Of a stretch of DNA of 50,347 nucleotides, positions 3,278-50,347 are shown piece after piece (within the stretch, counting starts at the first letter, position 1; every line of letters starts with the position of its first letter). This DNA comes from a virus. The stretch is taken from IMG/VR virus record IMGVR_UViG_3300045988_092645, positions 1 through 50,347 of that record. The stretch is one strand, 5' to 3'. The position numbers and the translations under genes were made by a program. The notes under the pieces are model-generated. The model saw only the letters and a list, made by a program, of their open reading frames with translations. It did not search any database and was not told where the DNA came from.

Positions 3278-3504
3278 AAGGTGTGAGCATCAATATTAAA
3301 TTGGTCATATATTGGTTCATCCTTCGTATCCTTTGCATAAACTAAATCTTTTAGCTCTATGATTGTGTTTACACAACGAGGCGAACAGACAATCTTTTTA
3401 AACCTCTTTATTTTCTTTGTGTTTTGTAATCTACTACCAATGTACTTTTTGCACTTCTTAACATAAAAACCTTCTTGCCTGTAATACTGAATTGTTTTAG
3501 GTTC
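3278..3504 (-). CDS. terL: terminase large subunit, exon 2 of 3
   Basis: EPKTIQYYRQEGF...CSPRCVNTIIELKDLVY...FNIDAHTF matches the TerL nuclease-domain pattern DSAEPksI...C.NT..EL..Y. Confidence 0.8.
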
Positions 3505-4343: not shown

Positions 4344-5387
4344 AGCACTATCACATATAATTGGCTTATCTAGTGCGATAGACCTATCTTTCACCTTTTG
4401 TACATCATCCCTTTTGGAAAACTTATCATCAGTTATATTGTTCATATATACTTCATCATAAATATATAAAACCTTTTCTTCATCATCAACACAACAAGAG
4501 ATAAGTGCATTAAATGATGTTTCAAAACCAAAGTCAAAACCAAAGAAATGAAATTTTGATGGAATCCTATGTACAACTGCCTTAAACTCTTTTGCATTTG
4601 TAGCAACTGTAAAATTCGGTAACACTTTTGTTCCATTTGCTCCAAACTTACCAAATCTGGCTACTTGATACAATGATTCATCAATATATTTTAATTCCTC
4701 AAGATTATCTATATATGATTGTGGCAAGAATGGGTTGTCATCAACTGTACTATGATGGTAGTAAACACCATTCTTTTTGTTTACTAATGTTTTCCGTCTG
4801 TATAACTCTTCTTCATCCTGTATAGTCTTCTTAATAATCTTGTCTTCCTTCTTTTCTGTATGTGTAAAGAATAAATCATACACCCAGTTTTCCCTGCCTA
4901 CAGGATTACACGTTAATATAAAATGCAATGTCATATTAGGCTGTCTGACACGTCCTAATACCTCTGTGTAGGCTTTGTAATTTAATTCAGAACATTCTTC
5001 CATCCAAACGATGGAAACTCCATGTATGGACTTTATCTTCTCTGTATTGTCCATTCCTCTGAATATGATTCTGCTACCATTCGGAAAGCGTACCTCCATT
5101 GGAGACTTAACAAACACTATTTTGTTTTTGTCTTTGTCTTTAAATGATAACAAATCCATATCACTAACTATTTGTTTTAATATTTCAAAACAAGAATCCT
5201 TTATCGTTGTAAATACATTTCTTACAACTAGACAAGTACGTTTTTCTTGTAATAATTTTAACACTATCTTCTGTGCTGTTGCTTGGCTCTTACCACTACC
5301 ATAACCGCCAATTACTAAATATTTTTCATAATCCCAGTCCATGATATAGGATGAAAACCTTTCTGATATTTTTACATCAATATCCAT
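4344..5387 (-). CDS. terL: terminase large subunit, exon 1 of 3 (ATPase domain)
   Basis: Walker A GGYGSGKS, Walker B VWMEECSE, ends ...PIICDSA. The last 21 codons of the track ORF (KFLVLNHV...) are read-through into the intron. Confidence 0.85.
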
Positions 5388-5888: not shown

Positions 5889-5962
5889 TGGAAAGTGTAG
5901 GAATCGAACCTACGACCTGTCGGTTATGAGCCGAGTGCTACTACCATCTGAGCTAACTTTCC
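5889..5962 (-). tRNA. tRNA-Met (anticodon CAU; an Ile2/lysidine identity cannot be excluded)
   Basis: Cloverleaf: acceptor GGAAAGU/ACUUUCC, anticodon loop CUCAUAA, T arm GUAGG-UUCGAUU-CCUAC, discriminator A. The D stem has one mismatch. Confidence 0.85.
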
Positions 5963-5965
5963 TTA

Positions 5966-6037
5966 CTGGGTATGTTGGATTTGAACCAACGTATCTAGGA
6001 GTCAAAGTCCTATGCCTTACCGCTTGGCTAATACCCA
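5966..6037 (-). tRNA. tRNA-Gln (anticodon UUG)
   Basis: Acceptor UGGGUAU/AUACCCA (U1:A72), anticodon stem UAGGA/UCCUA, loop CUUUGAC, T arm GUUGG-UUCAAAU-CCAAC. Confidence 0.85.
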
Positions 6038-6695: not shown

Positions 6696-6723
6696 ATTAT
6701 AACATAATATCTTAATATGTCAA
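6696..6723 (-). promoter_or_regulatory. sigma-A-type promoter
   Basis: -35 TTGACA (6718..6723), 16-nt spacer, TGtTATAAT (-10 at 6696..6701). Confidence 0.65.
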
Positions 6724-6794: not shown

Positions 6795-7400
6795 TTAATT
6801 ATTTAATTTATTTATGCATCTTTTGGTTAATGGAAACAGTACAACCTCATACATTGTTTCAATAATTGTAGCACCAACAGTCATTAGCAAAACATCTTTA
6901 AATTCCATGATACCAATAAAAGCTAAAAAGCTAAAAAGAAAGTTATCTAACAGTTGTCCTACAACTGTGCTTGATATTGCTCTAAAAAACAAACTGCTTT
7001 TCTTTTTAAAGTCTGCCATAATCTTCACATTAACGATTGACCCAACACTATAAGCAATAAAGCTTGAAATAACTATTCTAAAAGTTGTTCCCATAATTGT
7101 TGCAAAGGCTTTTTGGTTTTGATAAAAACTAGCCTTTGGAATATAAATACTAATAACGCCTAGAATTATCATACAGAAGTTCATTAGGTAACCAAACAAA
7201 ACCATATTTCTAGCTTTCTTGAACCCATATGTCTCCGTATAAATATCTTGAGTTAAAAATACTAATGGTGAAACAAGAATCCCTGTTGTTACTGAGAAAA
7301 TAAATACACTTATGTTTTTTGTTGCAAGCACATTTTGAATAATTACACCTGCACAATACATTGCAAAAATATACTTTTCTACTTTTGTTTTAATTTCCAT
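6795..7400 (-). CDS. yhhQ: 7-deazaguanine precursor (preQ0/preQ1) transporter, YhhQ/VUT family
   Basis: Multi-TM protein alignable by eye to E. coli YhhQ: FLTQDIYTETYGFKKAR, ISSFIAYSVGSIVNV, STVVGQLLDNFLFSFLAF. The ATG at 7400 follows AAGGAG and overlaps the dpdA stop. Confidence 0.8.
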   Translation of the reverse strand: MEIKTKVEKYIFAMYCAGVIIQNVLATKNISVFIFSVTTGILVSPLVFLTQDIYTETYGFKKARNMVLFGYLMNFCMIILGVISIYIPKASFYQNQKAFATIMGTTFRIVISSFIAYSVGSIVNVKIMADFKKKSSLFFRAISSTVVGQLLDNFLFSFLAFIGIMEFKDVLLMTVGATIIETMYEVVLFPLTKRCINKLNN

Positions 7401-8169
7401 TTTTAGTCCACTCCTTATCATCTTTTGATTTATTTTTTTGAGCTTGTATCCAGCAAGCTAAATTATTTGTGTTGAATGTTTGTCTGTCTATTCCTCTGTT
7501 AGCCATATTCCTTTGTAGTAAATGACCGTTTTTATATGTATACCATGTTCCATATCTAGCACCAGATAACCAAGCAGTACTGTCCACGCTATCAAATGGC
7601 ACTGTAGTATTATTAATATTACTTAATCGAGTATAGGCTAACCCATGTACATGACAATCGTTATTATGAGCAATCCTAAGTAATTGCCTTAGAGTTTTTG
7701 GATTCTTTACATATTCATCTATGCCTTTAACAATTCCACTTGCGGCAATCGCAATGTAGTCATACTCTTTACACATCTGCTTATAGTAATCAATGCCTCT
7801 AATTGCATGAAATACTGGTATTGTTTGTTTACCTGTTCTCTTTTCTATATACTGTCTTATTTTTATTGTCTCTTCTACACCAACAACATGGTCTAGGTCT
7901 AACTCTATAAACTGTTTAATGTCATACTTATTTATAAACTCTATGTAAGAATCTACGTAGCCTTTCCAGTTTACTTTCTTCCCGCTGTTCATAAATGTAA
8001 ATGCACCAGAGTCCAACAAGAACTCTTCACAGCTATTTAGATAGCTTTCCACCTTACTATCTTTCCATGCTCTCATATCATAATATGTTTGAAGTAAATA
8101 CCTATTCCCTTGTGTTTGCATTTGCTTTAACTCAACTTTACCAATACTACCTGCTAAGTATATTTTCAT
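7390..8169 (-). CDS. dpdA: DpdA-like DNA-guanine transglycosylase (TGT superfamily)
   Basis: LLDSGAFTF (cf. TGT DSGGFQ), ELDLDHV, HVHGLAYT, PFDSVDSTAW (cf. FDCV). At 259 aa it is too short for a tRNA TGT. AAGGAG RBS. Confidence 0.6.
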   Translation of the reverse strand: MKIYLAGSIGKVELKQMQTQGNRYLLQTYYDMRAWKDSKVESYLNSCEEFLLDSGAFTFMNSGKKVNWKGYVDSYIEFINKYDIKQFIELDLDHVVGVEETIKIRQYIEKRTGKQTIPVFHAIRGIDYYKQMCKEYDYIAIAASGIVKGIDEYVKNPKTLRQLLRIAHNNDCHVHGLAYTRLSNINNTTVPFDSVDSTAWLSGARYGTWYTYKNGHLLQRNMANRGIDRQTFNTNNLACWIQAQKNKSKDDKEWTKNGN

Positions 8170-8192
8170 GATATACTCCTTATTGTTTGTTA

Positions 8193-8726
8193 TTATGTGT
8201 TTTTAATTTGGCAATCATAACCTTTCTTTTTCAATTTATCTTGCAATATTTTTGTTTCGTCTTCTGTCTTGCATGTTATAATAACAAGGTGTTTTTCTTT
8301 TACTTTAAATTTTACTTCCTTCAAAGCTTTTTCTAAATCATCATCTGTCATGTTTGTATCAAAGCCAAACAAATCCATGTCTATATCTGTAAGCTGTTCT
8401 ATTTCTTCATCAAGTAAACTATAATCCCATTCGCTTTCATTCAGTTTATTATCTACCAACCTATATGCTTTTATTTGTTCTTCTGTTAATTCATCTAAAC
8501 ATACAGTAGGCACTTGTTTTAATCCTGCTTTCTTTGCTCCTAAGATTCTTCCATGTCCTGCTACTACGCAATCATGTTTATCAATTATAACAGGCTGTGT
8601 AAATCCAAACTCTTTGATACTATTGGCTATCTGTTCTACCTGTTCTTTGTTATGTTTCTTTGCATTTTTCTTATACGGTTTTAACTCTTTTATTAGTCTA
8701 TATTTTATGTTTAGCTTTTCTGACAT
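8193..8726 (-). CDS. ParB/Srx N-terminal-domain protein (possible DpdB-like partner)
   Basis: LKPYKKNAKKHNKEQVEQIANSIKEFGFTQPVIID...VVAGHGRILGAKKAG is the ParB-like nuclease/NTPase domain signature. The start is at 8726 or 8750. Confidence 0.7.
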   Translation of the reverse strand: MSEKLNIKYRLIKELKPYKKNAKKHNKEQVEQIANSIKEFGFTQPVIIDKHDCVVAGHGRILGAKKAGLKQVPTVCLDELTEEQIKAYRLVDNKLNESEWDYSLLDEEIEQLTDIDMDLFGFDTNMTDDDLEKALKEVKFKVKEKHLVIITCKTEDETKILQDKLKKKGYDCQIKNT

Positions 8727-8733
8727 ATCCCTT

Positions 8734-8925
8734 TTACACTCCTTTCTCATCTGTTATATGCATTATCTGTTTACCACAAAATGGACAATACCAACTATCA
8801 AGCATTCCCTCAAACATAACAGGGAACCATGATTCTTCTAGTTCATAATCGCATTGTGTTATCCATGCTTTTTGTTCTTGTTCTGCATTTGTTTTCTTTA
8901 TTTTCATCCATCTACATCTGTTCAT
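8734..8925 (-). CDS. small zinc-ribbon-like protein
   Basis: Track ORF with an AAAGGAG RBS and a C-terminal CPFCGK. Confidence 0.5.
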   Translation of the reverse strand: MNRCRWMKIKKTNAEQEQKAWITQCDYELEESWFPVMFEGMLDSWYCPFCGKQIMHITDEKGV

Positions 8926-9294: not shown

Positions 9295-10062
9295 CTAAAT
9301 AATAAAAATACCTGCATCTGCTTTTGAACCTTTGAAATAATCTGCTTTTGAACCATCGCCAACATTTATTGTTTTCATAATCCATGCAAGTGATACTTCC
9401 TTAAGCTGTCCACTTGTTGCAATTACTATTTTACCATTAAGAGCGAATCCTAAAGCAACATAAGTATGTATTGGATTCTTTTGTTCAATCACTACTTTTT
9501 TGCCTGCCTTTAGAGTTTCTTTGATTATCTTTCTAATATTTGTTTTATTATTTTGTTTTACATCATGGTAAACAGGTTTCTTTTTTGATATTGCTTTTAC
9601 TGTTTTATACGCTCCATGAATTGCTACCTTACTACCATTAAACTTATAATGGCTTCTGCAATACTTATTTATTTCGTATGGACTTTTATTTATTCCATAA
9701 GTCTCTAATGCTTCTACAATAGCGGCAATGGAACAACCATGTTTTGATATATACTCTCCAAAACTATATTGTTTTACGACTTTGATTCTTTTGTTTTGTT
9801 TCCCATTACTTAATACAGCTACCCATGGATATTTTTTATTTTTCTTTTGTTTTTTCTTCAACACAAGTCCTTTAACATATTTGGCATTTATATATCCTGT
9901 GATGTTACAATACTGTACTTTTACATATGGGATGTTTTTATCCCACACATATTTTTTGCCAACAATGTTAACTACTTTATTCATTGGTACTGTTCCTAAA
10001 ACCTTACCTTTTCTGTTTGGTTTTTGCCGAATACTCAATGAATTATATACGTTGCATACCAT
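9295..10062 (-). CDS. SH3b domain + papain-like cysteine peptidase (putative cell-wall hydrolase)
   Basis: N-terminal SH3b-like segment (SIRQKPNRKGKVLGTVPMNKVVNIVGK...YVKVQY...GYINAKYV). C-terminal Cys/His pair (HGCSIAAIVEAL ... IHTYVALG). Confidence 0.45.
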   Translation of the reverse strand: MVCNVYNSLSIRQKPNRKGKVLGTVPMNKVVNIVGKKYVWDKNIPYVKVQYCNITGYINAKYVKGLVLKKKQKKNKKYPWVAVLSNGKQNKRIKVVKQYSFGEYISKHGCSIAAIVEALETYGINKSPYEINKYCRSHYKFNGSKVAIHGAYKTVKAISKKKPVYHDVKQNNKTNIRKIIKETLKAGKKVVIEQKNPIHTYVALGFALNGKIVIATSGQLKEVSLAWIMKTINVGDGSKADYFKGSKADAGIFII

Positions 10063-11049: not shown

Positions 11050-11078
11050 AATATATCATAATACCTTTTATTTGTCAA
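11050..11078 (-). promoter_or_regulatory. sigma-A-type promoter
   Basis: -35 TTGACA (11073..11078), 17-nt spacer, TGaTATATT (-10 at 11050..11055). Confidence 0.5.
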
Positions 11079-11479
11079 GGCTTTTCTTGCATATATTCTT
11101 CTAGTTCATACACATACTGTATTAATTCCTGCCACCTGCTTCTATCTACTTCTATCATTCCTCTTTCATTTACTTTAGTAAACCTTTCTCTTGGCTTTGG
11201 TATAAAATCTTCATTCATATTGTGTAATTTCTGATAGGCTATCTTAACTGCATATGCTATGCACATCAAGCAAATTGTTATAGCAAATGCATCTATTGCA
11301 TCACACTTGATATAAGCCACCATAACGACCACATACAAGACTTTTACTACTGTACCTATCTCTCTAGCGTTTTTATATATAAAACCTGCTACACGCTCCA
11401 CCAGAGCGTCAAAACCACATAAGATAGCTTTTAATAAACTACATACCCATAATTTCATATTTTCTACGTTCAATCTCAT
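11075..11479 (-). CDS. membrane protein, function unknown
   Basis: Track ORF 11075..11506. The ATG at 11479 follows a GGGGGG RBS. Hydrophobic helices are present (VVKVLYVVVMVAYI, AFAITICLMCIAYAV). Confidence 0.5.
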   Translation of the reverse strand: MRLNVENMKLWVCSLLKAILCGFDALVERVAGFIYKNAREIGTVVKVLYVVVMVAYIKCDAIDAFAITICLMCIAYAVKIAYQKLHNMNEDFIPKPRERFTKVNERGMIEVDRSRWQELIQYVYELEEYMQEKP

Positions 11480-11954
11480 TTGTTGCCCCCCTGTCTGCCA
11501 AATCATTTAATAAATCACTTGAATGTCCTTTTACCTTAACAAAATTAATATACATACCTTTTTCATAAATCAATTTTGCCATGCGTTCCCAAATTCTTTT
11601 GTTTTTAACTTCATTACCTGTAGAAGTCTGCCAACCATTTGATTTCCATTTTAATAACCAACTATTAATTACAGGGTTCACAACATACGCTGAATCGGAA
11701 TAGATTGTAACTTCCTTTACTCCTTCCCTATATGCCTTTAATATAGCATTGTAAGCGGCTAGTAATTCCATTTCATTGTTTGTGGTATCATCTGACCCAC
11801 CTACTGTCGTTTCTGTTTTATATTCATTCTTATAAGGTACTACCTCAACATAACACCATCCACCAATGCCCGGATTACCAGAGCAAGCACCATCTGTATA
11901 GAAGGTTGCTTTTGTTTTTGGCATAATCAATTCTTCATTTTTGTTTTTACTCAT
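11439..11954 (-). CDS. rnhA: ribonuclease HI
   Basis: FYTDGACSGNPGIGGW, NNEMELLA, IYSDSAYVVN, WKSNGWQT, VKVKGHS...NDLAD. Confidence 0.85.
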   Translation of the reverse strand: MSKNKNEELIMPKTKATFYTDGACSGNPGIGGWCYVEVVPYKNEYKTETTVGGSDDTTNNEMELLAAYNAILKAYREGVKEVTIYSDSAYVVNPVINSWLLKWKSNGWQTSTGNEVKNKRIWERMAKLIYEKGMYINFVKVKGHSSDLLNDLADRGATNEIERRKYEIMGM

Positions 11955-20561: not shown

Positions 20562-20736
20562 TGTCCTGCACCTCTATTGATATTATATCTTTTTTTTGAT
20601 ATTTTGTCAAATCAACAAATCTTTCTATCGCACTTTGCTCGTTTGTATCATAACAAAAAAATGTACATATTGTATTATATTCCAAATCACTCCTTTTATA
20701 TCGTAAGCAATAAAAATTTAATCCAGTTTCATTCAT
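20545..20736 (-). CDS. hypothetical protein
   Basis: Track ORF. Confidence 0.45.
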   Translation of the reverse strand: MNETGLNFYCLRYKRSDLEYNTICTFFCYDTNEQSAIERFVDLTKYQKKDIISIEVQDNGSFR

Positions 20737-22604
20737 CCTTTGTATTTTTCCCTCCTTTCTGTCATGATTTCTTTTCTCACATCCTGCAAATCTTCAAATG
20801 GAATGAAACCTCTATCATAAATCAATGGGATTTCACACTCACCTTTTGGATTGCAAACTTTTGATTTTACAACTTTGCACTTCATAATCATGCCGATTGT
20901 TTCCTTGCTTGCTGTATTATATGGGTTATGATTTGGAATATCAATATATCCCTTTCGTGCTACCTGTATTCTCAAAGAACAACTATGTTTTAATTTATGA
21001 CCGCCTGGTGTTTGTATATTGTCTCCAAATGGCAAAGCGTTCATTTTATCTCGAATCTGATTAATAAATATAACAGTTGTTCCTGTTTGCTCTATTACAT
21101 CCTCTAAGGTTGGCAAATATTTATCCATTAACCTAGCAACACCACCAATCCTTGTTTCTTGTTCGCTATCTGTATTTACAGCCTTTCTAATTTTGTCTAT
21201 ATCATCCTTCGGTTGCATTGATGGTACACTATCAATAATAATTAATGGAATACCTTCCTCTGCGAATCTGATTGCTCTATTAAATGCTTTTTCACCATAC
21301 CTTGCTCTGTATACTAACATCTGCTTTGGTTTATTCCCAAACACCTTTGCTCTATTTGAATCAAACGTATTACCTGTTACAATAATACGATTATTTCTAC
21401 GCATAACCCACATTCCAGATGGCATCGTAAAACAATACATTTTCCCATCAACTGGTTTAAATTGTTCTACCGTTGCTTTTCTAAGGCTTACAATATCACT
21501 TCTGATACCCGAACAAACTGTATAACTTACTTTACTATTATCAATCAAACGACCATCAATATAATGGTATTCATCCCACCTATCACGTTCTACAATATAT
21601 GCGGCATATCCGCACGCTGTATAAGCAAACTGAATAAAATCAGCATCTTTTTTATTTATTGTCGTAAAACTCGGCATATGCCCTTTTTCAAATTGGCAAC
21701 CATCCCAATGTTTCATTTCATCCAACACAACCATTAACTGTCTGTTTGACATACCATACCATTCGCTAGGATAATGTTTAAATTTATATGGTGCATAAAA
21801 CTTAAAGAACTTTTTATCTTTCGATAACATATATTCAATTCCACAGTTTGTTAACAGCATTTTCATTCTATCTCGTTTTCTTTTTTTTGTTAATCCAACA
21901 TAACACAGATTTGTTTTATTCTCTTTTTTAAAACTTCCATCTGCCATTACTGCAACCATTAGACGAATAACTTCGTCTGATAAACTAACACCTTCTCCGC
22001 TGAACATAAACGTTTTTGGAATGTTTCCTGCAAACCCTTCTTTGTTTCTCAACATTCTTAAACGAATATCATGGAATGGCTTTATTTTTACTTTATTACT
22101 TCCAACTGGCTTGTACACTACATTATGATGTTCTGATACAACCATGTCTAATCTATTTTTTGTTTTCACATTCCACATAAGACAAGCATCTTTTTTATGA
22201 TACTTTAATGGTTCAACAAGTGTTGCTGTCCCATCTTCATTATATTGTAATACTTTCTCTCCCTTTTTATAATCACTAATTTTCTTCCATCCTTCTCCAT
22301 TAAAAAACTCTGTATCTTTATCTACGCATCCTTCAATCGGAATATCTAAACAAATTTCATGTTGTGAACATAAATGATATGCTAAAGAAGTTTTTCCTGC
22401 GGATTCACCTCCGAAGATTTCTATTGTTCTTCCTTTTGGCATACCTCCACCGATTATGTTATCAAGCTCTGGTAAACCTGTGCCCCATCTAGGAATTTTC
22501 AAAATACCATTTTTGCTTCCTAGACTATATACAGAACCATCACCCTCTTTTTTTGATATTTCCGAACATAACTTCATAATTGCTTCTCTGTTCATTTGTT
22601 TCAT
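20733..22604 (-). CDS. recA: RecA-family recombinase interrupted by an intein (extein 303 aa)
   Basis: IPRWGTGLPELDNIIGGGMPKGRTIEIFGGESAGKTSLAYHL, IIIDSV, GGVARLM, VIFINQIRDK, TPGGHKLKH. Confidence 0.85.
   Translation of the reverse strand: MKQMNREAIMKLCSEISKKEGDGSVYSLGSKNGILKIPRWGTGLPELDNIIGGGMPKGRTIEIFGGESAGKTSLAYHLCSQHEICLDIPIEGCVDKDTEFFNGEGWKKISDYKKGEKVLQYNEDGTATLVEPLKYHKKDACLMWNVKTKNRLDMVVSEHHNVVYKPVGSNKVKIKPFHDIRLRMLRNKEGFAGNIPKTFMFSGEGVSLSDEVIRLMVAVMADGSFKKENKTNLCYVGLTKKRKRDRMKMLLTNCGIEYMLSKDKKFFKFYAPYKFKHYPSEWYGMSNRQLMVVLDEMKHWDGCQFEKGHMPSFTTINKKDADFIQFAYTACGYAAYIVERDRWDEYHYIDGRLIDNSKVSYTVCSGIRSDIVSLRKATVEQFKPVDGKMYCFTMPSGMWVMRRNNRIIVTGNTFDSNRAKVFGNKPKQMLVYRARYGEKAFNRAIRFAEEGIPLIIIDSVPSMQPKDDIDKIRKAVNTDSEQETRIGGVARLMDKYLPTLEDVIEQTGTTVIFINQIRDKMNALPFGDNIQTPGGHKLKHSCSLRIQVARKGYIDIPNHNPYNTASKETIGMIMKCKVVKSKVCNPKGECEIPLIYDRGFIPFEDLQDVRKEIMTERREKYKG
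21369..22328 (-). mobile_element. intein with LAGLIDADG homing endonuclease (residues 93-412 of the ORF)
   Basis: Starts at Cys (PIEG|CVDKDTEF). Block B VSEHH. LAGLIDADG motifs LMVAVMADGSF and VVLDEMKHWDGC. Ends IIVTGN|T. Removing it joins CLDIPIEG-TFDSNRAKVFG, colinear with RecA FIDAEHALDPVYAKKLG. Confidence 0.8.
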
Positions 22605-27734: not shown

Positions 27735-28264
27735 TTTTTAATTTCCGTTAACTTGATATAAGGCTTTCCTAATTCCACATCATAGCAAGAATTTAATTGC
27801 TTTTTCTTTATCACTCCTGTTTGATATGCATTATCAAGTTTCGTTTCATTTACTACCTCTTGAACTTCTATATATTTCTTAAATTCATTTGGCTTTACTC
27901 CACAGGTTTTAAGATATTTAACAAGACCTTCCATATCACTAACAATGTATGTTTTATCTATAACTTCTTTCTGCTGTTCTTTTGTCAAGTTTTGTTTTAA
28001 CTTATCAAGAAACCAAACAATTTTTCTTTTTCTAATTTTCTGCACTTTCAAATGTTTATGGTTTGAGTAGTACATTTGCGTTTCATCAAGAGTCACATTA
28101 AAACTATCCGTTTCTTGTGTGGAATACATATAGTTTGAAATGTTTAAAGACTCTTTTCTGTTTACTTCATCTAAATATTGTTTTGCTTCTTTTTCATTCT
28201 GCCTTGCTTCATAAAGAAGTCTAACGCTATTCTTCACACTTGTTGGAACTGATGTATCTATCAT
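27731..28264 (-). CDS. hypothetical protein
   Basis: Track ORF 27731..28345. The ATG at 28264 follows GAAGGAGGG. Confidence 0.5.
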   Translation of the reverse strand: MIDTSVPTSVKNSVRLLYEARQNEKEAKQYLDEVNRKESLNISNYMYSTQETDSFNVTLDETQMYYSNHKHLKVQKIRKRKIVWFLDKLKQNLTKEQQKEVIDKTYIVSDMEGLVKYLKTCGVKPNEFKKYIEVQEVVNETKLDNAYQTGVIKKKQLNSCYDVELGKPYIKLTEIKK

Positions 28265-28925
28265 GAATATCCCTCCTTCCCTGCTTTGTTCTATGTCCTT
28301 TAATATAATTGCGAATATCCTTAGGGAAAGAATTCGCTGTATCATTTTTACTTACGATGAATAATAATTCATCAAAACCAATCTTGACTTCTGTCCCGTA
28401 GAATGTTTGAACTTTTACAAGTCTTTGTTTTCTGTTAATTCCTACAACTTTTGCAAACCTCAACTTTCTATATACATTCTGGTCTTTCGCTTCTACATAA
28501 TGAATAAATGCGATTGTTGAACCAATCTGTAATACTTCATCATATACCCATTGCGGCTTCTCATATGAATATTTTTCCGCAATCTGCTTTAATGTTGTTG
28601 CATAGATTCCTCTATACTTGTTTTCTGTCTCTTGCTCTTTTTCCGTTGTTTCTTCTTTTCCTTCCTCCCATGCTTCTTCATCATCCTGTGCCTGTGTTTC
28701 TTCTACTACTTCCGCAACTGCTTCGATTGCTTCTACAATATCTGCTTTTTCTTCTTCCTTGCTGTTATCCTCTTCTCCTTTTTTTTCTTCATTCTTGTAA
28801 AACTCTACAAGATTATCAATTAATTCCTGCTTTGTGAACTTATGTCCTTTATGCTCTAATTTAAGCCCCTTCTCTCTTGATAATGCTTTTAAATCCTTTA
28901 CTTTTAAATTACTTAAATCCTTCAT
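28227..28925 (-). CDS. HeH/Rho-N-like motif + acidic linker + C-terminal globular domain, function unknown
   Basis: LKVKDLKALSREKGLKLEHKGHKFTKQELIDNLVEF, followed by an E/D-rich linker. Confidence 0.55.
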   Translation of the reverse strand: MKDLSNLKVKDLKALSREKGLKLEHKGHKFTKQELIDNLVEFYKNEEKKGEEDNSKEEEKADIVEAIEAVAEVVEETQAQDDEEAWEEGKEETTEKEQETENKYRGIYATTLKQIAEKYSYEKPQWVYDEVLQIGSTIAFIHYVEAKDQNVYRKLRFAKVVGINRKQRLVKVQTFYGTEVKIGFDELLFIVSKNDTANSFPKDIRNYIKGHRTKQGRRDIHDRYISSNKCEE

Positions 28926-29329: not shown

Positions 29330-29379
29330 CAAAAATAAAGCTTATATACTACATAAATTAATATATAATATATAAGCTT
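29330..29379 (-). terminator. terminator-like inverted repeat closing the 33.7-29.4 kb unit
   Basis: 11-bp arms AAGCTTATATA (29338..29348) / TATATAAGCTT (29369..29379), then UAUUUUUGUUU on the minus strand. Confidence 0.45.
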
Positions 29380-29399: not shown

Positions 29400-30122
29400 T
29401 TAGTTATTTGTTTTGTTTTCCTTCATTGCTTTTCTTTCTTTTGCTGTGAACTCATCCTCATATTTAGACTTATACTTTTTGTGGTATTTGTCCTGCATAT
29501 TATGGATTGAAACAGAATCATAACCTGTGCCATTTAACTGTTCACACATTCTGTTTATTTCTTTGATTTCTTTTGTTACATTTTTTACTAACTTAGAAAT
29601 ATAGTCTGCATCTGCTGTCATACCATAATTTGTACACTGTTGCCATAATTCTTCATATAATTGTTTTGTTTGTTTCTCCCAGTCTTTATATCTCTGCATA
29701 GCAGACCGAACAAACTTCGGTAACACGTTATCATTAACATCTGCTGTGGTATATCTACTCCAATCAGAAGGGATAACTTGTGGTAAATCAACCTGTTTTA
29801 TTGGTATTATCTTATGATGCAAGTTAATATATTTATGATGCAGTTTTCTTTTGCCTGTTACCTCATTCATATATTGATATTCTAACTTGCGTTTGAATCC
29901 TTGCAAACCTAAAAAACAAAAGTAATCAGCTAATTGTTCATGCATACTCAAAGCCTTTTGCATATGTTCATCAAGCTTTAAATATATTTCTTCTGCACAC
30001 TGTTCTTTTTCTCTCTCATTTGTTTTCTGCATGGAATAACTTTTGTTTTGTTTTGTTTCAACAGACCACGGCTGTTCATCCTGTCTGTTCATATCTTGTT
30101 GTCCATTATACATTTCATTCAT
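29400..30122 (-). CDS. ferritin-like-looking helical protein, function unknown
   Basis: AGGAGGUG RBS. LADYFCFLGLQGFKRKLEYQYMNEVTGKRKLHHKYI loosely resembles a ferritin/Dps helix pair, but the metal ligands are not evident. Confidence 0.55.
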   Translation of the reverse strand: MNEMYNGQQDMNRQDEQPWSVETKQNKSYSMQKTNEREKEQCAEEIYLKLDEHMQKALSMHEQLADYFCFLGLQGFKRKLEYQYMNEVTGKRKLHHKYINLHHKIIPIKQVDLPQVIPSDWSRYTTADVNDNVLPKFVRSAMQRYKDWEKQTKQLYEELWQQCTNYGMTADADYISKLVKNVTKEIKEINRMCEQLNGTGYDSVSIHNMQDKYHKKYKSKYEDEFTAKERKAMKENKTNN

Positions 30123-30134
30123 TCAAAACACCTC

Positions 30135-30512
30135 CTAGATTGTTGGGAAATTGTATGCTGTTTTGTTTAATTCACAAGAAGAAACAACAAAAGTTCCACT
30201 ATCCGTTGCTACGTTTGTATGATATACTCTACGACTTCTTATTTGGTCTGCATGGACATTATTTCCACATTTTGTTCTTAAAACATACTGTGTTGTTCCT
30301 GCTCCAAGTGTAATTGCTACTGTATCTGCACTAGATATTCCTGTCGGCAATCCTTGTGCAACACAAATACATACTTTTTGTTTATTCACAAAAGTTTCCT
30401 GTGATATGTTTAATATTAAAACACCATCTGTCAAAGTCACACTATTTGTTTTAACAAAGTGTACACATCCTCCGCAACCATAACCATTATTATTATATAA
30501 ACTACATGACAT
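30135..30512 (-). CDS. Cys/Gly-rich small protein, function unknown
   Basis: AGAGGGG RBS. Starts MSCSLYNNNGYGCGGCVHF. Seven Cys. Confidence 0.55.
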   Translation of the reverse strand: MSCSLYNNNGYGCGGCVHFVKTNSVTLTDGVLILNISQETFVNKQKVCICVAQGLPTGISSADTVAITLGAGTTQYVLRTKCGNNVHADQIRSRRVYHTNVATDSGTFVVSSCELNKTAYNFPTI

Positions 30513-30544
30513 AATTCTAAAACCCCTCTCTAACGCTCTACAAG

Positions 30545-30573
30545 CCGAAATAAGGACGGTATTTCTACCGCCC
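30545..30573 (-). terminator. hairpin (attenuator/terminator-like) flanked by direct repeats
   Basis: GGGCGGUA-GAAA-UACCGUCC then UUAUUUCGG. Flanked by GCUUAGAGCGUG (30582..30593) and GCUUGUAGAGCGUU (30532..30545). Confidence 0.4.
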
Positions 30574-30607
30574 TACATTCTCACGCTCTAAGCGGATAAA
30601 ATACTAC

Positions 30608-31300
30608 CTAGCACCCACAGCAATTATTACAACCATTACCAAAACGAGAATACATATAAGCACTCTCATAAGGTGAACAGGTCTGATATGCTGGAATTGG
30701 TGTTGGTCTTAATGTGGAAATTAATGTTGCATTTTGTGCCTGCTGACTTAACTGGAAATTAGCTGTTTGAAGTTCATCCCTTAATGACTGAATTTCATTC
30801 TGTGTCATTAATGCTCTTGTTGCATCACCATCTGCTTTGATAGCATTAACAATGTCACAAGTATTACGAGCGTTTTCATAACGCACAGCATCAAGATTCC
30901 GATTAGTCGTACAGCAACAATCTGCTAACTGTGTTGCTAATGCGTTTGTGTTCTGCATACCTGCAACAGCTACATTATTGATTGCCTGCTGTGTACCATT
31001 AAAACCATTTAAAAGTGAAGTGTTCATGGCATAGAAACCATCACAAAGTCCACTCTCTAAACCATTCAGTTTGTTGATAACCGCTTGATTATCAAAACCT
31101 CTTTGAATGGCTGAGTCTGTATATGCACTTGCTGTTCCATTCATGCCATTACCTCCCCAGTTTCCTCCCCAGTTACCACCCCATGCAAGTAAGAAGAAAA
31201 GGAAAAATACCCAACTGCCATTGCCATCAAACATACCTTCATTGTCTCTGCCTAATGCTAAAGCATCAGCTACGCTTAATCCGCTACCATCCATACCCAT
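30608..31300 (-). CDS. membrane-anchored WGGN-repeat, Asn/Gln-rich, Cys-cluster protein, function unknown
   Basis: CAGGAGG RBS. TM WVFFLFFLLAW, then WGGNWGGNWGGNG. CCC triad (QLADCCCTTN). C-terminus GCNNCCGC. Confidence 0.65.
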   Translation of the reverse strand: MGMDGSGLSVADALALGRDNEGMFDGNGSWVFFLFFLLAWGGNWGGNWGGNGMNGTASAYTDSAIQRGFDNQAVINKLNGLESGLCDGFYAMNTSLLNGFNGTQQAINNVAVAGMQNTNALATQLADCCCTTNRNLDAVRYENARNTCDIVNAIKADGDATRALMTQNEIQSLRDELQTANFQLSQQAQNATLISTLRPTPIPAYQTCSPYESAYMYSRFGNGCNNCCGC

Positions 31301-31354
31301 AATAAGTACCTCCTGTAAGATTTTTATTTATATAAACCACCATTGGCTCATACC

Positions 31355-31549
31355 TTATTTTCTAAATGCTGATTGCATTTGTTTCATTTGGTTTTGAAAC
31401 TGGTTATATGCATCTTCTAAACTAATACCCCTTTGTTTGCAAAGATTATTTGCTACCTGTTTCAATTCATTCTCTGACTTTCCTTGTGCCATTTGTTTCG
31501 CCCTTGCAAATAATGGATTATTTTTAAACATCATTTCCAACTGGTTCAT
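31355..31549 (-). CDS. hypothetical protein
   Basis: GGAGGAGGUG RBS 6 nt before the ATG. Confidence 0.5.
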   Translation of the reverse strand: MNQLEMMFKNNPLFARAKQMAQGKSENELKQVANNLCKQRGISLEDAYNQFQNQMKQMQSAFRK

Positions 31550-31997
31550 CTAGGACACCTCCTCCAAGTTCTTCAATTCTCTGTTTCATTGATTTAATAA
31601 CATCTTCAAAATCTGTTCTCAAGACATACATATTATTTTGTTGTGCCTGTTGCTCCTGCATTTTGTTTTGATTATTCTCTAATACATATGTTTTTAATTC
31701 TGCTGTTCCGTCCAACATGATTTGTTTTGTATAAATCTTTTTGTTTGCTACATCTGTAAAAACAAATAGGCTACCATCCAAATCTATCATACTTGCCTTT
31801 GCTTCATCATAGCTGGAAACAGGTCTACAATTAATCATTTGTTGTGGTTGATTAAACACTTGCTGACCTCTCATGTATCCGTTATACTGATTTGCATATT
31901 GCTGTTGCTCGTATGCATTTACTCTATCTTGATACATTTGTTGTTGGTAAGGACTCAACGGCTTTCCCATGCCATAACCACCATAAGGGTATGTCAT
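31524..31997 (-). CDS. Gln/Tyr-rich low-complexity N-terminus + small globular domain, function unknown
   Basis: AAGGGAGGGAGAGG RBS. Starts MTYPYGGYGMGKPLSPYQQQMYQDRVNAYEQQQYANQYNGYMRGQQ. Confidence 0.6.
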   Translation of the reverse strand: MTYPYGGYGMGKPLSPYQQQMYQDRVNAYEQQQYANQYNGYMRGQQVFNQPQQMINCRPVSSYDEAKASMIDLDGSLFVFTDVANKKIYTKQIMLDGTAELKTYVLENNQNKMQEQQAQQNNMYVLRTDFEDVIKSMKQRIEELGGGVLDEPVGNDV

Positions 31998-32116
31998 TTC
32001 CTCTCCCTCCCTTCCTTTTGTATAACTCCATTATACAGCTATTATTGTAACAAAAGTATAAACAAAATATATTTCTAGTACACAAAAAGGAGATACGTTT
32101 TTGTATCTCCTTTACT

Positions 32117-32350
32117 TTACATAATATTTCCAATTTTTATCAATAATTTTCTGTGCTTATTTTTAACTGTTGATTCTGACATACCTAACATATCTGCTAT
32201 ATATCCTAATGACTTACCTTCTTTGTAATGCATTATAATAATTGTTTTATCTTCTTCGCTTGCCATTAGGTTTTCTAACATATTCTCAAAATCCTCCACA
32301 GAATCTATTTGTTTTAATTTCTTTCGAGTCAAGGCATTTTCTTTGTTCAT
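32117..32350 (-). CDS. sigma-70 region-4-like HTH protein (77 aa)
   Basis: EDKTIIIMHYKEGKSLGYIADMLGMSESTVKNKHRKLLIKIG matches the region 4.2 pattern (r.i..l.y.eg.s..EIA..lg.S..TVK...hRa...L). Confidence 0.65.
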   Translation of the reverse strand: MNKENALTRKKLKQIDSVEDFENMLENLMASEEDKTIIIMHYKEGKSLGYIADMLGMSESTVKNKHRKLLIKIGNIM

Positions 32351-32360
32351 GCCACCACCC

Positions 32361-32480
32361 CTATTTCATATACTTGCCGCAAGTTGGACAACGCTTTTGA
32401 CTCTGTTTCTTTCTTATTGATGTTGTATTTACTTTTCTTCTTGTTGTCACTCTCATTTTTCTTACATATGCTTTTGCCAT
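32361..32480 (-). CDS. small basic protein (39 aa, below the track cutoff)
   Basis: AGGUGA RBS. Translation MAKAYVRKMRVTTRRKVNTTSIRKKQSQKRCPTCGKYMK*. The stop lies 10 nt before the next gene. Confidence 0.35.
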   Translation of the reverse strand: MAKAYVRKMRVTTRRKVNTTSIRKKQSQKRCPTCGKYMK

Positions 32481-32526: not shown

Positions 32527-32775
32527 CTAATTTCCGCTTACATCATTATCATTGTACTCTGCATTTGCATTTTCACCTTCTGTTCCAACCTCAATCTTTT
32601 CTGTTGTAGTTGTCTCAAACTGTGATTCGTAATAAACAAAACCAGAATACCCAACAACTGCTTCTACAAACATTAAAACAATTAATAACACAATAATTTT
32701 ATCTTTTATTTTGTTAGACCTTGCATATTCTTTTTGTACATCCAGCAAAACTTTGTTTACTGTTTTTTCATCCAT
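32527..32775 (-). CDS. single-pass membrane protein
   Basis: TM IIVLLIVLMFVEAVVGYSGFVYY. The ATG at 32775 follows AGAGGUGAG. Confidence 0.5.
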   Translation of the reverse strand: MDEKTVNKVLLDVQKEYARSNKIKDKIIVLLIVLMFVEAVVGYSGFVYYESQFETTTTEKIEVGTEGENANAEYNDNDVSGN

Positions 32776-32786
32776 AAAACTCACCT

Positions 32787-33704
32787 CTAATCTGCATATC
32801 TTCTACATATAATTCTTAATGACCTTGTTGTTGGGTATTCATTTATTAAATCATACAGTGCCTTGCTAATTGTTATTTTTGCTGTGACGTTCCTTTGTGA
32901 ATTCGAATCAATTACATTCCTTATCTGATATGTAAAGTATTGTTTTATTGTTACGTTACCAAAATCATCTGGACTTACATAAGGTATTGGCGTGTATCTG
33001 TCATGGTTATAATCATAATACAAGCATTCTATCATAAACTTATTATTATTCCTTCCAAATATGTTACCATAACTAATAAATGCCGTTCCATTTGTATTTT
33101 GTGTAAAGTTTGTAGCAAGTGCACGTTCACTTTTTTGCCAATCCTTTGGTGTTAGGTTACTCATAGAACCTTCAAGCTCTTCTAAAGTTTGTTGTGCTTG
33201 ATTTGCTATTGTTTGTAAACTTTTTGGAGAGCCAACCATAAAATCTTCTCTCAAATCTGTTACTGATACACCATCTGATGTATAAGAAACAGTTCCCAAT
33301 AAGATTCCATATTGTGCATCTGTTTTTGGAACATTTGGCTGTTCATCTACTAAATCAAGCAATTCTACTCTCATTCTTCTATCAGCCGCAACATACATTA
33401 ATGCGATTGCTTTTGTTGTATTAACAGTTAAAGATATTTCCAAGTCCTGTTCATCGAGTATATACCAATACCCATTAATAAATGCCTTTCCCTCTTTAAT
33501 AAAAAGACTTGTTCCACTTGCATATGGCTTTAACCCTTGCACTGTTGTCTTGTCAATCGTTCCTGTTAATGTTTCCGAATCCTCAACATATATTCCATTC
33601 GGAATAAACAAACTTAAACAATCTGCAAAATCTTCGGCTTGATATGTTCTATCGTATGCACCATCTTGTAATCTTGCGTTAAAAAATCCACTTCTTTCTG
33701 CCAT
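32787..33704 (-). CDS. putative tail fibre / baseplate upper-type protein
   Basis: N-terminus MAERSGFFNARLQDGAYDRTYQAEDFADCLSLFIPNGIY is the conserved G-FFNS...DR-Y-A-DFA start of many Bacillota siphophage fibre proteins. Confidence 0.45.
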   Translation of the reverse strand: MAERSGFFNARLQDGAYDRTYQAEDFADCLSLFIPNGIYVEDSETLTGTIDKTTVQGLKPYASGTSLFIKEGKAFINGYWYILDEQDLEISLTVNTTKAIALMYVAADRRMRVELLDLVDEQPNVPKTDAQYGILLGTVSYTSDGVSVTDLREDFMVGSPKSLQTIANQAQQTLEELEGSMSNLTPKDWQKSERALATNFTQNTNGTAFISYGNIFGRNNNKFMIECLYYDYNHDRYTPIPYVSPDDFGNVTIKQYFTYQIRNVIDSNSQRNVTAKITISKALYDLINEYPTTRSLRIICRRYAD

Positions 33705-33729: not shown

Positions 33730-33758
33730 ATTATAATAATATATTATAATTTTGTCAA
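33730..33758 (-). promoter_or_regulatory. sigma-A-type promoter inside the tail module
   Basis: -35 TTGACA (33753..33758), 17-nt spacer, -10 TATAAT (33730..33735). Confidence 0.6.
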
Positions 33759-49297: not shown

Positions 49298-50029
49298 CTA
49301 TTTTTTATATTTCTTTGCTTTGTTTAATGTTTCTTTTCCAAACTTACCATTCACAGTTAATTTAAACATTTTCTGCGCTTTCTCTTCTGCCTTTGCTGTA
49401 CTTTCTCCATATTTACCATCAATCTTCAAGTCGGCATCTACTAACCAATTAAGCAGTTCTTGTACTCTCTTAATCTGTGTCGGGTATTCTGTATATGTTT
49501 TATATCCATCACCAATCTGAAAGTATCCTCTTGGCGGCAATACAGGAAATACATCCTTATAGGTAGTTGGTTCAACTGCTTTTAAGAATAATGCCCTTTC
49601 GGCTTTTCTACGTCTTGTAAGACCTCTGTAAACCCTTCCACCTGCCTTGTTATAAGATAACATTTTCTCTGCAATCTGTTTCTTTGTTCTTGTTCCATTT
49701 GCTGTTAACATTTTAATGCTCCCAATGTTAAAACAAAAAGACACAAGTGCTTCAAATTCATTTTGATTCCAATGATAAATGTTATCATATTTATTAACTA
49801 AAGGCGAATATTTCTTTCTTAAAGATTCCAAAAGCCATTTGTTAGCGGTATCTTTTGTTATCCTCATACCACTTTTGATTGTTCTACCTGTGATACCCTT
49901 ATCAGAATTTGTGATACCATAACCGATTGTCCAAACTCCTACTTCGTCCCTGCAGGCTTTTAACTGACAACCTTCAAATTCTTTTACAATTTTCATTCCT
50001 TCGCCATTTGCTCTAAATGTTTTCATCAT
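49298..50029 (-). CDS. endolysin: GH24 lysozyme + peptidoglycan-binding domain
   Basis: IVKEFEGCQLKACRDEVGVWTIGYGIT (T4-lysozyme-like catalytic Glu region). C-terminal KIDGKYGESTAKAEEKAQKMF...VNGKFGKETL (PG_binding_1-like). Confidence 0.85.
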   Translation of the reverse strand: MMKTFRANGEGMKIVKEFEGCQLKACRDEVGVWTIGYGITNSDKGITGRTIKSGMRITKDTANKWLLESLRKKYSPLVNKYDNIYHWNQNEFEALVSFCFNIGSIKMLTANGTRTKKQIAEKMLSYNKAGGRVYRGLTRRRKAERALFLKAVEPTTYKDVFPVLPPRGYFQIGDGYKTYTEYPTQIKRVQELLNWLVDADLKIDGKYGESTAKAEEKAQKMFKLTVNGKFGKETLNKAKKYKK

Positions 50030-50252
50030 TAACACCTACTTCTGGAATGCCTGCAATACTTGTTAAAACACTCACAACACCTGCTACAACACTTGCAGAT
50101 ACTACCATCTTCCAGTCTACAGAACTAATTACCGTTCCTGCACCAATAACACCAACTGCTGTTTGTGCCATTGTTTTAATTGCTCTAACTCCTGTTGCCT
50201 TACACCACTTAATTGTATTCACATCTGGTTTAAATACACAATTCTTAAACAT
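50013..50252 (-). CDS. holin
   Basis: MFKNCVFKPDVNTIKWCKATGVRAIKTMAQTAVGVIGAG...VVAGVVSVLTSIAG has two TM segments. The ATG at 50252 is 8 nt after AAGGAG. The track start at 50300 lies inside the upstream gene. Confidence 0.75.
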   Translation of the reverse strand: MFKNCVFKPDVNTIKWCKATGVRAIKTMAQTAVGVIGAGTVISSVDWKMVVSASVVAGVVSVLTSIAGIPEVGVNDENI

Positions 50253-50347
50253 TATGTTTGTTCTCCTTTCCATTTTCTTGTTTACACATTTTAAAATCAT
50301 GTTTTAATTCCATGATTTCCTTCCCATGTATGTTTATTTCATCCCAT
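50245..50347 (-). CDS. C-terminal part of the junction-spanning gene annotated at 1..267
   Basis: The same frame continues ...WDEINIHGKEIMELKHDFKMCKQENGKENKHNV*. The stop at 50245..50247 overlaps the holin start (ATGTTTAA). Confidence 0.6.
   Translation of the reverse strand, partial: WDEINIHGKEIMELKHDFKMCKQENGKENKHNV
50293..50347. repeat. terminal overlap, copy 2 (identical to 1..55)
   Basis: 55/55 nt identity with the window start. Confidence 0.95.

Follow-up and report, generated by a model that had tools for sequence, protein, structure and literature searches.

The DNA analysed here, called the window, is the whole of a 50,347-nt viral stretch (positions 1 to 50,347 of the IMG/VR virus record IMGVR_UViG_3300045988_092645), and all genes of this 50.3-kb window are on the minus strand. 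Behind the tail-fibre-like gene p305 it carries a cassette of seven small genes, which encode, in the order of transcription, a basic peptide (p39), a helix-turn-helix (HTH) protein of the sigma-70 region-4 type (p77), a Q/Y-rich protein (p157), a small helical protein (p64), a Cys-rich membrane protein (p230), a beta-rich protein (p125) and a ferritin-like protein (p240). Comparison of the loci shows that this is a conserved, fixed-order accessory cassette of the phages of gut anaerobes, which is present in thousands of genomes. As for its role, we tentatively favour, with more doubt than confidence, a very-late, membrane-tethered stalk-and-knob complex that would act at the cell envelope around lysis or egress.

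Conservation and distribution of the cassette

The core of the cassette is the membrane protein p230. Its relatives fall into more than 7,400 clusters at 90% identity, none of which has a Pfam domain or an informative name; among 1.84 billion cluster representatives its profile found 2,523 clusters at 50% identity with E <= 1e-3, of which 1,313 reached E <= 1e-10. Loci with a p230 relative were sampled from several annotated phages, 80 viral contigs and 79 contigs that belong to bacterial genomes or metagenome-assembled genomes. The locus counts given below are lower bounds, since contig ends truncate many of the loci and tblastn overlooks distant family members. The order of the genes is fixed: the CPTCGKY peptide (in some loci), the sigma region-4 (sigma-r4) HTH protein, the Q/Y-rich protein (QY family), the small helical protein (S family), the transmembrane (TM) protein, which was found in 160 of 164 loci, and then the proteins of two slots, d1 and d2. 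An earlier reading of this DNA, made from its letters without database searches (the sequence-only reading), had proposed to look for the set in other phage and prophage genomes, and there it proves to be coherent, conserved and accompanied by its own regulator gene. Moreover, the cassette is kept in each of the 11 close relatives that are informative, and in them p230, p125 and p240 are 94–99% identical (p230 and p125 96–99%) versus 77–95% for the adjacent tail proteins.

Its carriers include siphophages, T7-like and crAss-like phages as well as prophages of Clostridia and Negativicutes, and its family is found only in gut- or anaerobe-associated sequences. Among the isolated Clostridium perfringens phages, XP41-N3, vB_CpeS-17DYC and HMD-PC1 have it. 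In a Phascolarctobacterium prophage it lies at the prophage end, after an Amidase_2 gene and beside host ABC/ExbB/TonB genes. In the T7-like prophage of a Dialister isolate, the core trio follows the tail fibre gene and is itself followed by genes for three small membrane proteins, a glucosaminidase-like protein and the large terminase subunit (TerL). A Crassvirales genome has the cassette in part, with the p230 relative after genes for a holin and an L,D-carboxypeptidase.

No functional assignment for the five core proteins was obtained from Pfam, PHROGs, NCBIfam or PADLOC. For the core trio, Pfam, NCBIfam, PADLOC and the PDB sequences gave no match at all, and its PHROG matches were only to families of unknown function; the homologues of p230, p125 and p240 have no informative names, the few named ones being called 'hypothetical protein'. 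The sequence-only reading had recognised no virion, lysis or replication protein here, which stands at the level of sequence, but at the level of fold p125 resembles fibre-tip knobs (see below). The folds in the cassette that are known ones, as judged from family and profile matches, are the region-4 HTH, the ferritin-like fold and, in the alternative occupant of one slot, a TNF-like fold. In the literature on DUF7841, on C. perfringens phages and on BclA in phages, we found nothing on the cassette genes, and none of the libraries searched contained a described counterpart to the whole set.

The regulator gene and its presumed operator

By its family matches, p77 is a stand-alone region-4/LuxR-type HTH protein and not a sigma factor. 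It matched Pfam Sigma70_r4 with 31.1 bits (cut-off 24.1; 1.7e-7) and Sigma70_r4_2 with 30.2 bits (cut-off 25.7), and PHROG_36, a transcriptional regulator, at 3e-14; weaker matches were to GerE and RinA. The scores for the RinA/ArpU model TIGR01636 (19.3 bits over model positions 64–128 only, cut-off 31.9) and for DUF1492 (16.1 bits, cut-off 21.5) were below the cut-offs. No match to sigma region 2 was found in Pfam or NCBIfam, only the C-terminal region-4 part of the sigma models being covered. The sigma-r4 gene was found in 71 of 164 loci, and the size of its product is always 75–101 amino acids (aa); no p77 homologue was detected beside the cassette of XP41-N3. The description of p77 as a 77-aa, region-4-only HTH protein in the sequence-only reading was right. 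Its further idea of a sigma-like factor is not supported in so far as p77 is no sigma factor, since it has region 4 only. The 39-aa basic peptide noted upstream of p77 is a conserved micro-ORF (open reading frame): peptides of the form MAKxT...(T/R/K/S-rich)...RCPTCG(K/R)Y are encoded in 17 loci, where the CPxCG motif is always 27–56 nt before the sigma-r4 gene. The peptide holds half a zinc-ribbon motif and has a weak YhfH-like match.

The sequence-only reading had drawn one transcription unit from a sigma-A promoter upstream of p305 to an inverted repeat with a T-tract behind p240. Both ends hold: the promoter (33758–33730) is a perfect TTGACA-N17-TATAAT, and the inverted repeat (29379–29338) with its T-run forms a stable fold of -19.4 kcal/mol (z = -5.7), past which lies the next perfect promoter (29306–29279). 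The uninterrupted operon between them does not hold, since a hairpin (32113–32086; -14.8 kcal/mol, z = -6.2) directly follows the stop codon of p77 and a new promoter-like site, TACTTT-N17-TATAAT (32058–32030), stands before p157. This is the sole such site in the window, and its non-consensus -35 element holds an ATACTTT box.

The same arrangement recurs in other genomes. Among 34 non-redundant spacers that separate the regulator gene from the gene for the Q/Y-rich protein, hairpins at or below -15 kcal/mol are present in 29, and ATACTTT in 13, versus 0.8 expected and a maximum of 9 for any 7-mer in shuffles. The shorter ACTTW is found in 25 of the 34, and, like ATACTTT, it is mostly 55–73 nt upstream of the start codon. 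Furthermore, several spacers (those of loci L015, L041, L052, L020 and L098) have two or three direct copies of ATACTTT-type boxes at a spacing of 11 nt, that is one helical turn, as would be expected for the cooperative binding of an HTH protein. The conserved ATACTTT is a candidate operator at about -35 of a promoter without a consensus -35 element, and the location of the boxes, at about -35 after a terminator, suggests that p77 serves the cassette as a dedicated activator.

Being an HTH protein of the region-4 type that stands alone, p77 is like RinA/ArpU, GerE and, conceptually, with respect to the box that substitutes for a -35 element, MotA of phage T4. It also shares with the RinA/ArpU-type activators a gene just upstream of the presumed targets and a conserved box near -35 with a good -10 element. 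The differences from RinA/ArpU are that p77 is half their size and scores below the cut-off of TIGR01636, and that its presumed target is a five-gene accessory cassette, not the late operon from terminase to lysis.

Perfect host-type promoters are common in the window. Ten sites of the form TTGACA-N16-18-TATAAT (at 6723, 13124, 13914, 20610, 25573, 28987, 29306, 33758, 36714 and 46251) were found, all on the minus (coding) strand, versus 0.08 expected, and some of them are inside or at the ends of structural genes.

The proteins of the cassette

The sequence-only reading had described p230 as a membrane-anchored protein with a CCC motif. The features were found: the protein carries WGGNWGGNWGGN, CCC and a C-terminal GCNNCCGC, and a hydrophobic segment at residues 30–40. 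Its N-terminal part consists of a conserved acidic tail followed by one TM helix, with GxxxG-type repeats after the hydrophobic core of the helix, and the second half of the helix is Gly/Trp/Asn-rich. The family motifs are GLCDGFY, the invariant CCCxTNRNIDAVRYEN and RPxPxPAY(x)TCSPY, and the G/N/Y/C-rich tail ends with GCGC, while the cysteines are not universal in distant members, for example in loci L117 and L126. A coiled coil or long helix is predicted at about residues 141–192 in a low-confidence model. The protein matched PHROG_16490 (function unknown) at 2e-28, and its profile found no sequence relative in the PDB.

In its predicted make-up of N-terminal TM anchor and long helical or coiled-coil domain, with cysteines and a Pro-rich C-terminus, p230 may resemble the i-spanins (lambda Rz, T7 gp18.5). 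In the Dialister T7-like prophage its gene stands after the tail fibre gene and before TerL, where T7 has its lysis genes. The cassette differs from them in that it has no lipoprotein partner, the downstream proteins being without signal peptide or lipobox, and in that it is present in phages of the monoderm C. perfringens; moreover, p230 is highly conserved across phyla and has no sequence similarity to spanins. A variant, P0442 (557 aa, positions 263–1936 of L169), joins the C-terminal domain of the p230 family without the membrane helix to a beta-rich domain of 300 aa and an Ala/Glu/Arg-rich coiled coil, and is followed by an 80-aa ORF and a DUF7841 protein on a single 2.9-kb contig. It was considered as a Rosetta-stone link to tail fibres and set aside, because no relative of its N-terminal domain was found in the PDB, the cassette loci or the phage collection and the contig is one short piece.

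The protein in the d1 slot, directly after the membrane-protein gene, is beta-rich and has 120–160 aa; it is of the p125 type in 42 and of a BclA-C-like type in 74 of the 164 loci. Of the Gly- and Cys-richness ascribed to p125, the Cys part is right (7 Cys, conserved) but the Gly content is only moderate (11 Gly). The N-terminal Cys motif is CX9CX2C in the window and CX3CX2C in most p125-type proteins. The AlphaFold2 (AF2) model of p125 is a seven-strand beta-sandwich (pLDDT 69, pTM 0.63), for which Foldseek against BFVD returned its own homologues first and next the C-terminal knobs of fibre, collagen-like and hyaluronidase tail proteins (E = 1e-5 to 1e-3). Against the PDB, Foldseek gave nothing at E <= 0.001, with no BclA among the 50 best rows; the p125 profile found no sequence relatives in the PDB, BclA included, and there was no match in Pfam.

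The BclA-C-like alternative is a stand-alone domain of 130–150 aa. Its single sequences are below the Pfam threshold, but by profile it is a genuine BclA-C/TNF-like domain: the profile matched the F-BclA C-terminal domain 9H38 at E = 5e-7 along almost the entire length (positions 5–137), BclA itself (2Z5W, 1WCK) at 5e-5 to 3.5e-4 and C1q-related factors at 0.04, with the TNF ligands below. In 9H38 one sees the C-terminal part of F-BclA, which makes the tip fibril on the endospore appendages of Bacillus thuringiensis; it is described as a TNF-like trimer (PMC12357932). The alternative thus shares the C-terminal TNF/C1q-like knob domain of BclA and F-BclA, whereas it has neither collagen stalk nor exosporium leader and is phage-encoded, including by phages of non-sporulating hosts, and the window p125 belongs to a separate family without detectable sequence relation (hhalign probability 0.3% against its BclA-type slot-mates). 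The exosporium-like resemblance that the sequence-only reading had noticed is therefore true of the positional analogues of p125 but not of p125 itself, which fails every BclA-C test. The Ena and F-ENA spore appendages, defined as the families DUF3992 and DUF4183, respectively (PMC12357932), were also considered for the N-terminal Cys motif on a beta-sandwich, and were rejected since neither p125 nor its slot-mates matched DUF3992 or DUF4183.

The impression that p240 looks ferritin-like was correct at fold level. A profile of 29 family members matched more than 20 solved ferritins, among them those of Archaeoglobus fulgidus, Thermotoga maritima and Pyrococcus furiosus, at E = 1.9e-6 to 1e-4, with an alignment over helices A–B and, in some matches, over positions 7–152. 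Nevertheless, the family differs from prokaryotic ferritins in the loss of the ferroxidase ligands and in an extra low-complexity N-terminus in some members: the ExxH ferroxidase motif of helix B is not conserved, the helix-A position aligned to the ferritin Tyr is an invariant His, and the only near-invariant residues are H61, E149 and E185. None of the 29 members matched a ferritin-like Pfam family at E <= 0.1. In the d2 slot, the p240 type is found in 52 and a DUF7841 protein, whose profile has no relative in the PDB, in 55 of the 164 loci. Because hhalign detected no relation between the two d1 types or between the two d2 types, both slots appear to be filled by analogues rather than divergent homologues.

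The Q/Y-rich N-terminus attributed to p157 was borne out by composition, its 21 Gln and 13 Tyr being concentrated in the N-terminal third. In the alignment, the QY family has a low-complexity N-terminus, a conserved beta-rich domain of about 50 aa (KGRPVxSxxEAxAxxIDxDGS...IYTKQ...DG) and a C-terminal coiled coil. Its gene is present in 104 of 164 loci, in every case immediately before the gene for the small helical protein, which was found in 110 and has the consensus NPxFxxAxQMxQGKxPxxxxQxxxNLCKQRGI. Profile searches of the PDB gave no relative for the QY or the S family, and scanning the QY members one by one against Pfam gave nothing consistent.

Position of the cassette and the lysis genes

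The sequence-only reading had found the cassette where a lysis cassette normally sits. Lysis genes are indeed absent from this spot, and no lysis family of Pfam, PHROGs or NCBIfam was found among the seven proteins, but lysis genes are present elsewhere. A holin-like gene at 50013–50300 (minus strand) encodes a product that, over 46 residues, shares 56% identity with the annotated r1t-type holin of Bajarodcaudo virus 5, and directly after it follows a gene at 49298–50035 (minus strand) for a GH24 lysozyme (E = 6.5e-24 to solved phage lysozymes) with a peptidoglycan-binding-like C-terminus. The pair (49298–50300) heads the structural operon, just upstream of a probable portal gene, the latter a guess from position. 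Because the window has this holin and GH24 lysozyme elsewhere, the cassette, on the evidence of gene content, does not stand in for the lysis genes. A second lysin-like gene at 9295–10062 (minus strand) encodes an N-terminal SH3_3 and a C39-like peptidase domain and has a gene for a 2-TM protein (11075–11506) near it; a lysin of the same type lies beside the r1t holin in Bajarodcaudo virus 5. It was dropped as the endolysin when the clearer holin and GH24 pair was found.

With a small query panel, a lysin gene was found in the flanks of 36 of 168 loci, and in 31 of these it is 1.5–5.2 kb upstream on the same strand; an integrase gene was found in 21 of the 168, in 17 of them 1.8–4.7 kb downstream on the opposite strand. 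Because of this arrangement, the usual place of the cassette appears to be the end of the late operon, between the lysis genes and the integrase gene and attachment site (int/att). In Bajarodcaudo virus 5, the genes for holin, lysin and an XhlA-like protein, the sigma-r4 gene and the cassette are in one row. In C. perfringens phages XP41-N3 and vB_CpeS-17DYC, amidase and holin genes follow the tail genes. The window phage has no match to the two integrase queries tried, and since all its genes are also on one strand, it is probably virulent and the cassette is probably useful in purely lytic growth as well.

Its mobile position, described below, and its own regulatory signals mark the cassette as an autonomous accessory unit. 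In this respect, it is similar to the phage morons (HK97 gp15, T5 Llp and prophage conversion genes), with which it shares autonomy, own regulatory signals, a membrane protein and a location after fibre or lysis genes and before int/att or early genes. It is different in having five to seven genes in a fixed order, in being spread over unrelated phage types and host phyla, and in being kept in a phage without a match to the integrase queries.

A proposed role at the envelope and its alternatives

The tentative reading that we favour would work as follows. The HTH protein p77 would be produced at the distal end of the late transcription unit and would bind the ATACTTT boxes near -35 of the promoter that lacks a consensus -35 element, so that expression of the cassette would start later than that of the virion genes and form a 'very late' class. 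The N-terminal helix of p230 would insert into the cytoplasmic membrane, and its long helical domain, together with p157, p64, p125 and p240, all four of which are without signal peptide, would form a membrane-tethered stalk-and-knob complex, probably held together by the clustered cysteines via bound metal or disulfides. Late in the lytic cycle this complex would act on the envelope as an auxiliary that affects when or how completely lysis and egress proceed, and not as the lysis machinery. In support of this reading are the TM helix and coiled coil of p230, the knob-like fold of p125, the BclA-C/TNF-like slot-mates and the ferritin-like p240. The conserved order and co-occurrence of the genes, the terminator and boxes behind the p77 gene, the late position near lysis genes in many loci and the presence in a probably virulent phage speak for it as well.

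Several points weigh against it. None of the core proteins has a homologue of known function, and the AF2 model of p230, from 27 homologues, is too poor for a fold search (pLDDT 40). Both flanks of its TM helix are poor in Lys and Arg, so that the positive-inside rule gives no orientation for p230. A Cys-bridge between the p230 tail and the d1 N-terminus was rejected, since the Cys counts of the two are not correlated (rho 0.15, n = 23, with many pairs missed by the script). The expression timing is deduced from gene order and sequence signals alone, and the upstream promoter is a perfect host-type one, which could fire early. Furthermore, the cassette has no constant position: it comes after the gene for the receptor-binding protein in Dulem virus 36 and the window, is located among early-type genes 4 kb beyond the lysis genes in the C. 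perfringens phages, between head genes in Dulem virus 35 and among early genes after the integrase gene in Dulem virus 39, and in the window it is 17 kb from holin and endolysin.

A rather unlikely alternative is superinfection exclusion or another anti-phage defence of the moron kind, in which a membrane complex would block the entry or development of competing phages, with d1 and d2 as specificity or sensor parts. The usual place, past the lysis genes and before integrase or att at the close of the late operon, is the classic moron position, the core is a membrane protein, the unit has its own regulator, and each downstream slot has two non-homologous alternatives. However, 5,027 PADLOC models gave only weak HTH-type matches for p77 and a weak one for p39 (E = 0.008), with none for the other five proteins; the cassette is kept in a phage that matched neither integrase query; and p230 is highly conserved across phages of different host phyla, unlike exclusion proteins, which are specific to host or phage. 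Moreover, a regulator gene placed last in the late unit, past the fibre gene, would come too late for exclusion, and because of this and of the terminator before the cassette we prefer the egress reading to exclusion or defence. Production from late promoters with release that depends on lysis is known for Stx, colicins and clostridial toxins, and the cassette might encode such a cargo, an adhesin- or bacteriocin-like particle that would act outside the cell. Its knob would bind, its Gly-zipper helix would insert into membranes, its d2 protein would be a helper or immunity factor, and the small Met/Gln-rich proteins would cover the hydrophobic helix. Signal peptides are absent from all soluble members, knobs of the TNF/C1q type serve in binding, lysis genes often adjoin the cassette, and GxxxG-type repeats are present past the hydrophobic core of p230; nevertheless we consider this improbable, since it is a purely inferential picture, no toxin or bacteriocin family of Pfam or NCBIfam was matched and p230 resembles an ordinary N-terminally anchored membrane protein.

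Still less probable is an accessory fibre on the virion, with p230 as shaft, p125 as knob and p240 as fibre-assembly helper. It would agree with the location after the receptor-binding protein gene in the window and Dulem virus 36, with the similarity of the p125 model to fibre-tip domains, with a crAss-like homologue annotated as 'spike protein' and with P0442, in which the C-terminal domain of p230 is joined to a beta-rich domain and a long coiled coil. On the other hand, virion parts are normally of one morphotype, while the cassette is found in sipho-, T7-like and crAss-like genomes and also outside the structural genes, the TM helix is conserved, and P0442 is known from one contig with an N-terminal domain that has no identified relative. 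We give only a very slight chance to a membrane tether for DNA replication or packaging, comparable to phi29 p16.7/p1, in which a TM coiled-coil protein would work with small helical DNA-binding partners to arrange phage DNA at the membrane: in the window, Dulem virus 36 and XP41-N3 the replication genes come right after the cassette, which is beside TerL or a TerS-like HTH gene in the Dialister prophage and cr116_1, and p64 shows, by eye only, a helix-GI-helix pattern, but no DNA-binding domain was detected in the core proteins, the knob and ferritin-like members would be left unexplained, and the cassette is often far from replication genes. An equally slight chance is given to a metal or redox module for strict anaerobes, in which the ferritin-like and Cys-cluster proteins (CX3CX2C, CCC, GCGC) would serve at the membrane in dealing with iron, with Fe-S clusters or with oxidative stress. 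The ferritin-like p240, the N-terminal Cys motif of most p125-type proteins, the Cys-rich p230 and the restriction of the family to gut- or anaerobe-associated sequences speak for it, whereas the ferroxidase motif is not conserved, the unrelated DUF7841 takes the place of the ferritin-like protein in about half of the loci and the p230 cysteines are not universal, with L117 and L126 as examples. The idea taken from the sequence-only reading, that a phage sigma factor would drive a system related to spore coat or exosporium or one that remodels sporulation, is scarcely credible. It drew on the Q/Y-rich, Cys-rich and ferritin-like members, to which the BclA-C-like d1 alternative could now be added. 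However, a role in spores or exosporium is not supported by the host range, because the hosts include non-sporulating diderms: the cassette is found in prophages of Dialister and Phascolarctobacterium, and a p230 relative in a Crassvirales genome. In addition, no spore coat or exosporium family of Pfam or NCBIfam matched the window proteins, p77 is without region 2, and p125 is not detectably BclA-C.

We rate the cassette as outside every described kind of phage system, although it may yet prove to be a familiar thing, such as an exclusion system or a lysis accessory. It is possible, if doubtful, that it represents an unrecognised phage machinery, in which a region-4-only HTH protein would provide -35 recognition and very-late genes would build a stalk-and-knob complex for an undescribed egress step. 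The p230 family has thousands of clusters and neither Pfam model nor name nor solved relative, and such breadth and conservation mean that the cassette must do something important for the phages that carry it; none of the virion, lysis, replication, defence and lysogeny categories accounts for it. Furthermore, the combination of a region-4-only protein with an ATACTTT box at -35 could reveal a new way to redirect the host RNA polymerase. Even if the cassette turned out to be an ordinary exclusion system or lysis accessory, this would annotate thousands of 'hypothetical' genes of gut viromes.

Layout of the locus and other features of the window

All seven ORFs of the cassette named in the sequence-only reading were found on the minus strand at the coordinates in Table 1, and the strong ribosome-binding sites claimed for them are real, with an ATG start and a GGAGG-type site before it in 7/7 genes. 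The N-terminus of the upstream p305 matches PHROG virion structural families, and the protein shares 40% identity with the one annotated as receptor-binding protein in Dulem virus 36. The part of the cassette at 30.1–31.3 kb had been described as less AT-rich than its surroundings, which was taken to suggest acquisition from elsewhere. This is true of p230 (G+C 0.40 versus 0.324 for the window) but of none of the remaining genes, and the evidence for a foreign origin is weak, because other parts of the genome reach a G+C of 0.38.

Table 1. Features of the cassette locus in the window.
Feature	Coordinates	Strand	Description
Promoter TTGACA-N17-TATAAT	33730..33758	-	In the gap before p305; heads the unit p305-p85-p39-p77
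p305	32787..33704	-	Receptor-binding/tail-fibre-like; last virion gene before the cassette (context)
p85	32527..32784	-	Small single-pass membrane protein; lineage-specific, 17/82 loci
p39	32361..32480	-	Basic T/R/K-rich peptide with C-terminal RCPTCGKY; conserved micro-ORF
p77	32117..32350	-	Sigma-70 region-4-only HTH protein, LuxR/GerE-sized
Terminator hairpin after p77	32081..32113	-	11-bp stem, loop of 6, then UUUUUGUGU
Promoter-like site TACTTT-N17-TATAAT	32030..32058	-	32 nt before the p157 start codon
p157 (QY family)	31524..31997	-	Q/Y/N/M-rich N-terminus, beta-rich domain, C-terminal coiled coil
p64 (S family)	31355..31549	-	Small helical protein
p230 (TM family)	30608..31300	-	Cassette core; single-pass Cys-rich membrane protein
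p125 (d1 slot)	30135..30512	-	Seven-strand beta-sandwich in AF2 model
p240 (d2 slot)	29400..30122	-	Ferritin-like four-helix-bundle protein with N-terminal low-complexity extension
Cassette terminator	29331..29379	-	18-bp A+U-rich hairpin, then UUUAUUUUUG

Beyond the cassette, p232 (28227–28925, minus strand) opens the group of replication genes and has a perfect promoter of its own in front of it (28987–28959). By eye it has a SAP/Rho-N-like helix-extended-helix (LKVKDLKALSREKGLK) followed by a long acidic stretch, and it matched no family. At the low-coordinate end of the window, a 410-aa ORF (679–1911) has no family match either, and the large terminase gene is seemingly split (2369–5387, minus strand), with TerL-like ORFs at 4278–5387 and 3187–3519 and HNH endonuclease ORFs at 3629–4222 and 2369–3109 alongside. 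Adjacent genes for tRNA-Met (CAT) and tRNA-Gln (TTG) are at 5889–6037 (minus strand). A queuine tRNA-ribosyltransferase-like gene (7390–8169, minus strand) lies between the genes for a 5-TM protein (6795–7421) and a ParB-like nuclease/methyltransferase-like protein (8193–8750), and the three (6795–8750) may be a 7-deazaguanine DNA-modification set. In addition, a 623-aa ORF (20733–22604, minus strand) matches three kinds of PHROGs in series, DnaB-like at residues 39–80, PhoH-like at 86–415 and RecA/UvsX-like at 412–551, and may be a helicase carrying an insertion.

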